NCBI GenBank assembly: GCA_965371855.1
Contig: CBDUZZ010000005.1
Coordinates: 28,342-92,341, forward strand
DNA: 64,000 bases
From: an uncultured bacterium
GTDB taxonomy: Bacteria; Bacteroidota; Bacteroidia; Bacteroidales; Marinilabiliaceae
Direction: 5' to 3'
Position 1 is the stretch's first letter. The number at the start of each line of letters is the position of its first letter. The position numbers and the translations under genes are program-made. The notes under the pieces were generated by a model, which searched no databases, was not told the DNA's origin, and saw only the letters and a list, made by a program, of their open reading frames with translations. Positions 2,888 through 31,890 of this stretch are shown piece by piece.

Positions 2888-2989
2888 TTACCTGTTTATT
2901 TGGTTATTGGTTACCTGTTTATTTGGTTATTGGTTATTGGTTATTGGTTATTGAGTGTTGGATATTGGATATTGAATATTGAATATTGA
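2888..2989. repeat. Composite tandem array: 23-mer x2, then eight heptamers (TTATTGG / ATATTGG / ATATTGA types)
   Basis: ttacctgtttatttggttattgg occurs at 2888-2910 and 2911-2933, followed by ttattgg ttattgg ttattga gtgttgg atattgg atattga atattga atattga. An inverted partial copy, ccaatatcaataaccaat, lies at 3004-3021. The array fills the xylA-xylE intercistronic spacer. Confidence 0.95.
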
Positions 2990-3036
2990 TTTTCCCTGAA
3001 CACCCAATATCAATAACCAATTTCCAGCCTCCAGCA

Positions 3037-6130: not shown

Positions 6131-6293
6131 CCTAATTGGGGTAAACGAATTGAGTTAATAAATATGTAAATTAAGCCCCTTTAGGGGTTTGGGGTAGTTA
6201 ACCTTCACCCCTCAGTCCCCTAAAGGGGATGACTGTATGGTATTTTAATTCACCCCCAATTGACTTCGCCTATCTTCGATTCCCCTAAGGGGA
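6131..6293. repeat. Cluster of GC-rich mini-palindromes (CCCCT-loop-AGGGG type)
   Basis: gcccctttaggggt (6175-6188), GGGG 6191-6194 paired with CCCC 6208-6211, tcccctaaagggga (6216-6229) and tcccctaagggga (6281-6293). An outer pair, cctaattggggt (6131-6142) and acccccaattg (6252-6262), encloses the first three but not the fourth. The cluster lies just downstream of the V-ATPase operon. Confidence 0.7.
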
Positions 6294-9226: not shown

Positions 9227-9290
9227 GGATTTACGATTTATGATTTATGATATTTGGATTTACGATATTTGGATTTATGATTTATGATAC
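9227..9290. repeat. Tandem heptamer array (GATTTAC / GATTTAT / GATATTT types)
   Basis: ggatttacgatttatgatttatgatatttggatttacgatatttggatttatgatttatgatac, in the spacer between the subunit B stop and the subunit D start. Confidence 0.9.
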
Positions 9291-9328
9291 TCATTTTAAT
9301 TTTATTTTTTTTATTTATAACATCCTAA

Positions 9329-9348
9329 CATCCCCACATCGTAAATCC
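9329..9348. repeat. Inverted copy of array words (CATCCCCACATC + ATCGTAAATCC)
   Basis: atcgtaaatcc (9338-9348) is the exact reverse complement of ggatttacgat at 9227-9237 and 9256-9266. catccccacatc is the reverse complement of gatgtggggatg at 46996-47007. Confidence 0.85.
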
Positions 9349-9357
9349 TTACATCCA

Positions 9358-30248: not shown

Positions 30249-30698
30249 ATGACATCTTTTATAATAGCTCTTGCTACACTCATTCTTGGTTATTTTTTTT
30301 ACGGCCGTGTAGTTGAACGCTTCTTTGGCGCTGATGACTCAAAGCCAACACCGGCAATGAAAATGCAAGATGGCGTTGACTACACACCTATGCCTACATG
30401 GAAAGTATTTACTATTCAATTTCTTAACATTGCAGGTCTGGGGCCAATTTTCGAAACCATTCTCGGGGCCATGTATCTGGCTAAAGTAAAAAAACCTCTC
30501 TGGATGCTTTCATTGCCGGCAGCTTTTATGACAACTGTGACGTTTACATACCTGCTTGTTGCTCCGGTGAAAAACGGCGGTTTCTTTTTAAGTACTGACA
30601 TTGGCTATTTAATTGGTCTCGCAGGTGGTATCTTTTCACTTATTCTATTCATAAATAAATCACGTAAACATTCAAAGGGAAACAGATTACATGAATAA
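30249..30698 (+). pseudogene. Carbon starvation protein CstA remnant with an in-frame internal deletion (intact 149-aa ORF)
   Basis: The N-terminus GYFFYGRVVERFFGADDSKPTPAMKMQDGVDYTPMPTWKVFTIQFLNIAGLGPIF matches the CstA N-terminus. It runs straight into a C-terminal-like segment KKPLWMLSLPAAFMTTVTFTYLLVAP. Several hundred central residues are absent. Confidence 0.6.
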
Positions 30699-31890
30699 TT
30701 TCAGACCTTTCTCAAGAAAGACAGTACTCATTTGGTTTGCTCTGCTAACCTTCGGATTAACTGAATTGGCAGCAGCTTATCCGCATATTACAGAGAAGTA
30801 TTATTCTACCGGCATTTATCCTGTTATTGCATCCATATTAAGCAGAATAAGTAATGCTTTCCCGTTTTCGTTGGATGACATTTTCTACATATCTCTAATC
30901 GTTGTAGCCATCACTCTGACAGGACTTTTAATAATTAGTGTCTGCAAGAAAACTATCAAATTTAGAGGTTTGCGTCATTGCGAACGAGGTACGAGTAAAG
31001 CAATCTCTATTGGATATCAACAGATTGCTTCGTCCTATCGTCCTCGCAATGACGATCTGTGTCATGTTTTCTTGCAGACACTAATTAGAAAGGTTCGAAT
31101 AAAAAAAATCATCTATACGCTTATAAATGTTTTAGCTGTAGTTTACATTCTCTTTTACTGGTTATGGGGTTTTAACTATTTCAGAATACAATTAAACGAA
31201 AGATTAACTATTCCTGAACAAACAGTATCGAAGGAAAATTTCAACTATGCACTTGATTATTTAATAGAATCTGCAAACAAAAATCACACTGACACATTTA
31301 ATATTAGCTACAACGACATAAACATATTGGTTGAAAAAAGTTATCAAGAGTCATCCGGTTTTTTAAAAATAAATTACCCTCAGGGAGTTCGTAATCCAAA
31401 ACCTATTACATTCAGCAGGTTTTTTGCCAAGGCTGCCATTTCCGGGTATTTCGGGCCATTTTTTAATGAGATACATATTAACCACTATCTGTTGCCTGTT
31501 GAGTATCCATGGACACTTGCACATGAAAAATCACATCAGTTTGGAATAACAAGCGAAGCAGAAGCAAATTTTTATGCATGGATTATTTGCAACAATAGTG
31601 AAAACAGTCAAATCAGATATAGTGCTAACCTAAATGCACTGTTCTACTTTTTATACGAGGCAAGAAAACTGAAAGATTATAAAAATACTATTTCTAAAAT
31701 TGACGAAGATGTAAAAGAAGACATTAGAGAAATCATTAATCACTGGGCCAAACTTCGTAATAAACATGTTGAGAAAGCTGCATCCAAAGCAAACGACACT
31801 TACCTTAAAACAAACAAAATAGAAAAAGGTATTGATGACTACAATGAAGTTGTAAAGTATGTTACTGAGTATTTGGTGATGAAGAAATGA
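30691..31890 (+). CDS. DUF3810-family putative membrane metalloprotease
   Basis: 399 aa with N-terminal TM segments and a LAHEKSHQFGITSEAEANFYAW zinc-protease-like motif. It carries a 52-codon palindromic insertion (separate feature). Confidence 0.7.
   Translation: MNNFRPFSRKTVLIWFALLTFGLTELAAAYPHITEKYYSTGIYPVIASILSRISNAFPFSLDDIFYISLIVVAITLTGLLIISVCKKTIKFRGLRHCERGTSKAISIGYQQIASSYRPRNDDLCHVFLQTLIRKVRIKKIIYTLINVLAVVYILFYWLWGFNYFRIQLNERLTIPEQTVSKENFNYALDYLIESANKNHTDTFNISYNDINILVEKSYQESSGFLKINYPQGVRNPKPITFSRFFAKAAISGYFGPFFNEIHINHYLLPVEYPWTLAHEKSHQFGITSEAEANFYAWIICNNSENSQIRYSANLNALFYFLYEARKLKDYKNTISKIDEDVKEDIREIINHWAKLRNKHVEKAASKANDTYLKTNKIEKGIDDYNEVVKYVTEYLVMKK
30932..31087. repeat. 156-bp palindromic element inserted in frame in the DUF3810 gene
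   Basis: Outer arms taattagtgtctgcaagaaaac (30932-30953) and gttttcttgcagacactaatta (31066-31087) are perfect 22-bp reverse complements. Inner arms are cgtcattgcga (30973-30983) with tcgcaatgacg (31044-31054), and aagcaatct (30998-31006) with agattgctt (31022-31030). 156 is 52 codons, and there is no stop in the gene frame. Confidence 0.8.

Follow-up and report, generated by a model that had tools for sequence, protein, structure and literature searches.

In a 64,000-nucleotide stretch of DNA from an uncultured Marinilabiliaceae bacterium (Bacteroidota; GenBank assembly GCA_965371855.1, contig CBDUZZ010000005.1, positions 28,342 to 92,341; the whole stretch is referred to here as the window), the gene for a DUF3810 protein is interrupted by a long palindrome, and the open reading frame (ORF) of the gene reads through it without a stop. 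The question raised by this locus is what the palindrome is and how it came to lie in frame inside a gene. A sequence-only reading of the window had taken it for a 156-bp element analogous to the Rickettsia palindromic elements (RPEs). Based on the structure of its ends, its relatives in other genomes and the DUF3810 orthologues, we conclude, at a probability of roughly 0.9, that the palindrome is a MITE (a transposable element of the miniature inverted-repeat type) with the ends of an ISNCY insertion sequence (IS) and an interior consisting of a dimer similar to repetitive extragenic palindromic (REP) sequences, and that it landed in frame in DUF3810, presumably after mobilisation in trans.

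Inverted-repeat analysis of the window DNA located perfect 22-nt arms (30932-30953 and 31066-31087) around two inner complementary pairs, one of 11 nt (30973-30983/31044-31054) and the other of 9 nt (30998-31006/31022-31030); outer and inner arms had both been described in the sequence-only reading. In a repeat scan of the whole 64-kb window, the 22-nt arm pair was the longest perfect inverted repeat spanning 400 nt or less. The scan also detected imperfect inverted or repetitive structures at 2923-3026, 6167-6237 and 9249-9355, namely (TGGTTAT)n-type repeats opposite their complement, a hairpin of the GCCCCTTTAGGGG type, and repeats of GATATTTGGAT, all of them unrelated to the MITE. The predicted folding energy of the palindrome region was -71.7 kcal/mol as RNA (z = -9.6, with 0 of 200 shuffles matching it) and -39.5 kcal/mol as DNA (z = -9.2 versus shuffled controls). 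The element is also richer in G+C than its surroundings, as had been noted, at 42.4% versus 32.9% for the remaining DUF3810 gene and 34.9% for the window. The outermost six nucleotides of both 22-nt arms are the same direct repeat, TAATTA. These hexamers correspond to a duplicated target, so the element proper measures 144 bp (30938-31081) and not 156 bp, and the net gain of the gene is 150 bp, or 50 codons. Thus, the arms and the absence of stops described earlier were real, while the length of 52 codons was not. The two terminal inverted repeats (TIRs) match each other at 16 of 16 positions, and the two copies of the target-site duplication (TSD) are identical at 6 of 6. The features of the locus are as follows.

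30691-31890, plus strand: host gene DUF3810 (PF12725), 399 aa (340-369 aa in orthologues), Pfam E 1e-78; the MITE encodes residues 82-131
30932-30937, no strand: left TSD copy, TAATTA, same as 31082-31087
30938-30953, plus strand: left TIR, GTGTCTGCAAGAAAAC, perfect complement of 31066-31081; the 16-mer recurs at the ends of related elements
30954-30972, plus strand: left subterminal spacer, TATCAAATTTAGAGGTTTG; its ATCAAATTT part also adjoins the TIR in MITE subfamilies L188 and L207
30973-31008, plus strand: core unit 1, CGTC-tagged and REP-like, CGTC-ATTGC-GA-(degenerate middle)-AA-GCAAT-CTC, which fits (C/T)GTCATTGCGA-N8-20-AAGCAATC-C/T
31009-31020, no strand: central loop separating the inverted core units, at the apex of the predicted hairpin
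31021-31054, minus strand: core unit 2, inverted, minus-strand reading CGTCATTGCGAGGACGATAGGACGAAGCAATCTG; pairs with unit 1 in the predicted fold
31055-31065, plus strand: right subterminal spacer, ATCTGTGTCAT
31066-31081, minus strand: right TIR, GTTTTCTTGCAGACAC, perfect complement of the left TIR
31082-31087, no strand: right TSD copy, TAATTA; removing 30938-31087 in silico restores LTGLLIIRKVRIKK, colinear with the orthologues

The boundaries drawn from the repeats were compared with those of an alignment of the 399-aa protein with 16 DUF3810 orthologues (349-369 aa long and 51-72% identical to it). Exactly 50 residues (ISVCKK...FLQTL) were absent from all 16 orthologues, and the sequences on both sides of the gap were colinear. 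The proposal that the palindrome is a clean in-frame insertion, for which such an alignment had been suggested as the check, is therefore correct, with 50 residues as the matching count. In the syntenic relative GCA_053985695.1, an empty site was found, in which CTTGTTATTATCAGAAAGGT is uninterrupted. Within the DUF3810 gene, the target TAATTA belongs to the codons of ...L-I-I-R.... Of the six frames of the element with its TSD, five contain stops, and the gene uses the sole fully open one; with a gain of 150 bp and an insertion that happens to have the orientation and phase of this frame, the ORF stays open.

A second copy of the element was not found in the 64-kb window, again as the sequence-only reading had it. 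Its expectation of a mobile element with copies elsewhere was borne out by a genome scan, in which one genome per species was searched with the TIR plus the core as the pattern, leaving the flanks unbiased. The TIR and core were found together at 12 loci in four Bacteroidota metagenome-assembled genomes (MAGs), nine of these loci being in one Bacteroidales MAG. Nine further complete copies of the subfamily, 131-159 bp long and ending in GTGTCTGCAAGAAAAC and GTTTTCTTGCAGACAC, were recovered, at least seven of them from one MAG, and the inverted core pair was present in every MITE copy of the subfamily. Seven of the nine are flanked by identical hexamers (TATTTA, TACATA, TAGATA, TAACTA in two cases, TATCTA, and TAATTA). 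When the window copy is counted, hexamers are identical on both sides in 8 of 10 elements, and 18 of 20 flanks fit TANNTA. The closest copy, at 81-82% identity with that of the window, is L127 of a Draconibacterium sp. MAG; it lies at an unrelated locus.

When metagenomes were scanned for TA plus the TIR, at least 120 loci were obtained, among which there were at least 26 other MITEs (84-231 bp) with the TIR and TSD of the window element but with unrelated interiors. Since the TIR is common to MITEs whose interiors differ, it defines a MITE superfamily of several subfamilies. The window element itself is 144 bp long, below the limit of ~300 bp for MITEs, and has no coding capacity of its own; in other copies, the only ORFs are short and spurious. 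Viral contigs scanned with TA plus the TIR gave no matches. In a large metagenome subfamily (L135, L136, L167, L169, L242, and others), a second, degenerate TIR-like copy, GTCTTTGATAAGAAAACG, was seen ~30 nt inside one end, with GTCTTTGCAAGAAAAC at the opposite terminus, which suggests nested or tandem ends.

The copies in other genomes also bear on the idea that no transposon is involved, and that the 50 residues are a lineage-specific segment of the protein or an artefact of assembly (a chimeric palindrome). The allele is present in one assembly only, and P0001 is a singleton cluster, as this idea would predict. However, the TIRs and TSD are common to dozens of independent copies in other assemblies, the segment is precisely the part that all 16 orthologues lack, and the small database ORFs P0241 and P0242, which are translations of further MITE copies, give nearly the same peptide. 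We consider an explanation of this kind scarcely credible.

A source of transposase for the MITE was sought among elements with the same ends. Sixteen full-length elements of 1794-1874 bp with the same TIR and TANNTA flanks were found among the metagenome matches listed. The intact ORF of one of them (L192:406-1914, 503 aa) matched the NCBIfam model NF033593, 'ISNCY family transposase', with an E value of 1.9e-125 and 419 bits (cutoff 325), and gave weak matches to the IS5 and IS1182 models and to Pfam DDE_Tnp_1. Thousands of homologues of this ORF were found, mostly on ~2-kb contigs, and some of them carry the NCBI name 'ISNCY family transposase [Bacteroidota bacterium]'. The partner elements thus resemble the ISNCY family in their size (1.79-1.87 kb), in a single ORF of ~500 aa matching NF033593, and in their 6-bp duplications. 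From the size of ~1.8 kb and the 6-bp duplication, they presumably belong to the ISDol1 group (1.6-1.9 kb with 6-7-bp duplications in ISfinder), a subgroup placement that is provisional. Beyond the 16-bp ends, the insertion sequence and the MITE have nothing in common.

Inside the MITE, one unit, CGTC-ATTGC-GA-(middle)-(G)AA-GCAAT-C, is present as an inverted pair. The sequence-only reading had recognised its core as a widespread one, and rightly so: the pattern GTCATTGCGA-N8-20-AAGCAATC was found in at least 120 viral contigs, with 175 units among the matches listed, and CGTC palindromes are known in Bacteroidetes (PMC3733652), so the core is not unique to this locus. The consensus of the viral-contig units is (C/T)GTC-ATTGC-GA-[hairpin]-GAA-GCAAT-C-(C/T), the base preceding GTC being C in 42% and T in 54% of the 175 units. 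In the middle of the unit there is a mini-hairpin with a perfect stem of 2-7 bp; its sequence is wholly different from copy to copy, even in one contig (GC-gaa-GC, GGGC-aaa-GCCC, GGCTGAC-gaa-GTCAGCC, and GTCCCGA-ttta-TCGGGAC, among others). Population-wide, the 3-nt tail follows C-(C/T)-(C/A); the two units of the window have CTC and CTG, and the reference tail is close to CCA. On their own, the core units of the window are predicted to fold weakly, no better than shuffles.

Several further observations were made on these units. In those of viral contigs, (C/T)GTCATTGCGA-[hairpin]-GAAGCAATC, the outer 5-bp stem and the GA/GAA internal loop are kept (e.g., L054:315-460 and L016:3339-12744; L001-L120), the commonest distal hairpin contains the GCGAAGC mini-hairpin sequence, and the flanks are not conserved and show neither TIRs nor a TSD. 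Perfect G+C-rich hairpins, TCCCGAT-N2-4-ATCGGGA and CCGCC-N4-GGCGG, occur at varied positions in unrelated MITE interiors (L124:1497-1650, L163, L167, L179, L199, L203, L235). Hairpins of the same types form the variable distal hairpin of CGTC-type units (L016:8828, L054:411, L041:6170, L120:5827), as if they were inserted modules. A strand-specific role of the core at the RNA level was considered and rejected, as intergenic units lay on the same strand as the flanking genes in 37 cases and on the opposite strand in 32, without bias.

What moved into the gene was not the widespread core by itself. The viral-contig sample of ~185 units contained 23 convergent dimers, and inverted repeats of at least 10 nt flanked none of these 23 bare core dimers. 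Since bare dimers have no TIRs, the widespread core cannot in general be called a MITE. In ~150 kb of MITE-bearing genomes, the core was almost confined to the MITE, which implies that in the MITE-bearing lineage the core travels with the MITE. As the interior does not come from the insertion sequence, and the REP-like module is widespread as a free-standing repeat, the MITE subfamily is a chimera of IS ends and a REP-like dimer.

These results also decide how much weight can be given to a different route of spread, in which an RPE- or REPIN-like palindrome moves by a single-strand hairpin mechanism, with an HUH/RAYT-type or other enzyme acting on the CGTC hairpins and the outer arms being incidental. 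In favour of this route, two CGTC-tagged units make up the interior in inverted orientation, and the class to which they belong, which includes RPE-4 and RPE-6 of Rickettsia, is mostly found in the form of inverted dimers (PMC3733652); without TIRs, singly and as dimers, the unit is very abundant; and Bacteroidetes possess their own TnpA-REP subclass, with atypical hairpins on its flanks (PMC6006769). However, the exact 16-bp TIRs and 6-bp duplications of the window copy and its relatives are those of a DDE insertion sequence. To our knowledge, transposition mediated by HUH enzymes leaves no target duplication. The near-confinement of the core to the MITE, described above, also argues against the hairpin route, and no dedicated transposase has been found for CGTC-tagged REPs (PMC3733652). 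We therefore regard spread through hairpins as very unlikely for the window element.

The reading of the element as an ISNCY-type MITE suggests the following course of events. A full-length element at another site in the genome, or in another member of the population, would supply a DDE transposase of ~500 aa in trans, and this enzyme would bind the TIRs. It would insert the element at TANNTA by a 6-bp staggered cut, and repair would leave the 6-bp duplication. In the present case, the target was TAATTA in DUF3810, and the insertion lengthened by 50 residues a short basic loop that lies between two predicted transmembrane helices.

Several points weigh against this reading or a part of it. The transposase gene and a full-length element are both absent from the 64-kb window. 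In 10 of the 16 full-length elements (L144-L212), the TANNTA hexamers on the two sides differ, which may be due to collapsed metagenome assembly or to recombination between copies. The TA included in the metagenome pattern biases one flank position; in the unbiased genome set, TANNTA is still found in 18 of 20 flanks. Finally, directly upstream of DUF3810 and sharing 8 nt with it, the gene cstA (30249-30698, plus strand, 149 aa) has undergone an internal deletion that keeps the frame. Compared with the 480-aa CstA of the syntenic relative (L253:2566-4008), its residues 1-72 correspond to residues 1-72 and its residues 73-146 to residues 409-480; residues 73-408 are lost, and the junction lies in a repeated GAMY motif. 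The sequence of the junction suggests that the deletion arose between short direct repeats. Such a deletion hints at relaxed selection on the locus, or at its decay.

Other candidate functions and affiliations of the element were examined. In Rfam, searched with the element region and six core-rich loci, no family covers the element or the core; a plasmid collection searched by BLASTN with the 156 bp gave no match; and a search of the literature for the core sequence as a literal string retrieved unrelated primer matches only. No intrinsic terminator was predicted at the element, and a single promoter-like match, which would have been an outward promoter, was within chance expectation. The possibility of an integron attC site was dropped, as the AAC/GTT boxes are absent, and that of a hammerhead ribozyme was dropped for lack of a match to its core or in Rfam.

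We next consider what residence of the MITE in a gene means for the protein. Of the 35 other copies, none lies within an ORF of more than 135 aa, the window copy being the one case in 36, and the length of the element plus 6 is divisible by 3 in 15 of 36 copies, near the third expected by chance. Both results indicate that in-frame residence is an exception in this family. The 50 added residues are mostly hydrophilic, with a net charge of +6, and lie between hydrophobic segments at approximately aa 58-88 and 139-160, adjoining a basic RKVRIKK loop. In an AlphaFold2 model, the confidence score (pLDDT) of the insert is 45-49, while that of the conserved C-terminal domain with its invariant HExxH exceeds 90. 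A structure prediction had been proposed to see whether the insert lands in a loop, and the model does place it, at low confidence, between predicted transmembrane helices; the loop that carries it is probably on the cytoplasmic side. No PDB structure matched the model significantly in Foldseek (best E 1.2). A short basic loop between helices, modelled with low confidence, is a position where an insert would plausibly be tolerated.

The same insertion may instead have left the gene effectively dead, the frame being open by luck and the event being too recent for decay, with the 399-aa protein unmade or non-functional. A recent insertion is suggested by the TIRs and TSD, which have stayed perfect, and an intact ORF after a recent event is weak evidence of tolerance. 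With one of six frames free of stops, an open frame is not improbable by chance, and the absence of all 35 other copies from long ORFs fits a situation where intragenic copies are normally purged. The overlapping upstream cstA gene is itself deprived of residues 73-408, and the mRNA would contain a hairpin of -72 kcal/mol, a possible obstacle to translation or target of double-strand-specific RNases. On the other hand, the insertion is in a short, poorly conserved basic inter-helix loop and not in the conserved HExxH domain, the remaining ORF is free of frameshifts and stops, and all invariant residues of the family are kept. We judge the odds that the gene is dead to be somewhat short of even.

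The MITE reading places the element among known systems as follows. Bacterial MITEs moved in trans by an IS transposase include Correia/NEMIS in Neisseria, RUP in S. pneumoniae, Nezha in cyanobacteria, and QMITE in Coxiella. Like these, the window element is short, non-coding, and multi-copy, with 16-bp TIRs identical to those of an autonomous IS and a TSD of fixed length. Unlike them, it has as its partner a Bacteroidota ISNCY insertion sequence with a TANNTA 6-bp duplication, and its interior is a CGTC-type REP-like dimer in place of IS remnants. Occasional in-frame fusions with host ORFs have been described for QMITE2, ERIC, and others (PMC5896051, PMC10969869). A 2024 review of MITEs calls such fusions 'not unusual', with RPEs, QMITE, and ERIC cited, and mentions neither ISNCY nor Bacteroidota (PMC10969869).

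With RPEs, the window element has in common that a palindrome of ~150 bp lies in frame in a protein-coding gene and adds a hydrophilic peptide, a likeness that concerns a single copy. RPEs were reportedly described by Ogata and colleagues in 2000 and 2002 (as cited in PMC10969869 and PMC3733652). We know of no transposase, TIR, or TSD assigned to them, whereas all three are present for the window element, and of no demonstration of a DDE-transposase mechanism for RPEs. The window element also carries CGTC-tagged hairpins, as do RPE-4 and RPE-6 (PMC3733652), the likeness being one of the tag alone. Nearly half of RPE copies lie in ORFs, versus 1 of 36 here. The analogy with RPEs made by the sequence-only reading is thus apt for an in-frame palindrome with a CGTC tag. 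It does not extend to a recurrent habit of in-frame insertion (0 of 35), and the element is an ordinary ISNCY MITE with TIRs and a TSD.

Di Nocera, De Gregorio and Rocco (2013, BMC Genomics 14:522, PMC3733652) catalogued CGTC-tagged REPs in Bacteroidetes, Chlorobi, Spirochaetes, Thermotogae, and Proteobacteria, and equated RPE-4 and RPE-6 of Rickettsia with this class. REP dimers embedded in longer palindromes, such as H. neapolitanus CGTC-1, were described in the same work (PMC3733652). The core shares with these repeats a CGTC/TGTC tag (CGTC in both window units), an ATTGC...GCAAT stem starting with AT, its occurrence as single units and inverted dimers, and perhaps a short C-rich tail. It differs from them in that its stem is 5 bp long, its internal loop is GA/GAA, and its distal hairpin varies from 2 to 7 bp, where the described families of CGTC-tagged REPs have an 8-9-bp stem and a 4-5-nt loop. 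Unlike in the REPIN/RAYT system, the tag is CGTC and not GTAG.

The mechanism is that of a standard MITE with TIRs and a TSD and with an identified transposase family; the phenomenon is already known, and the current understanding of MITEs is unchanged by the element. What is new is a Bacteroidota MITE family derived from ISNCY, with a TANNTA 6-bp duplication, its chimeric make-up, in which IS ends enclose a CGTC-type REP-like dimer, and this in-frame allele of DUF3810. A bare palindrome has thereby acquired defined ends, a target rule (TANNTA with a 6-bp duplication), and a named transposase family. For annotation, the 399-aa DUF3810 protein is to be flagged as MITE-bearing, and many small 'hypothetical proteins' of Bacteroidota with RHCE.../...PRND-type peptides are translations of such repeats. 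The locus also provides a natural test of the tolerance of a membrane-protein loop to a 50-residue insertion, and illustrates one route by which CGTC-type palindromes can move, as passengers of a DDE transposon. A bolder proposal, which we hold tentatively and consider doubtful as a whole, is that CGTC-tagged REP-like dimers were captured between ISNCY ends and spread as cargo of a DDE MITE, and that one such insertion gave a viable DUF3810 variant with a 50-residue cytoplasmic loop. If true, this would mean that MITE-driven remodelling of proteins takes place outside Rickettsia, and would provide a concrete mobilisation route for some CGTC repeats.

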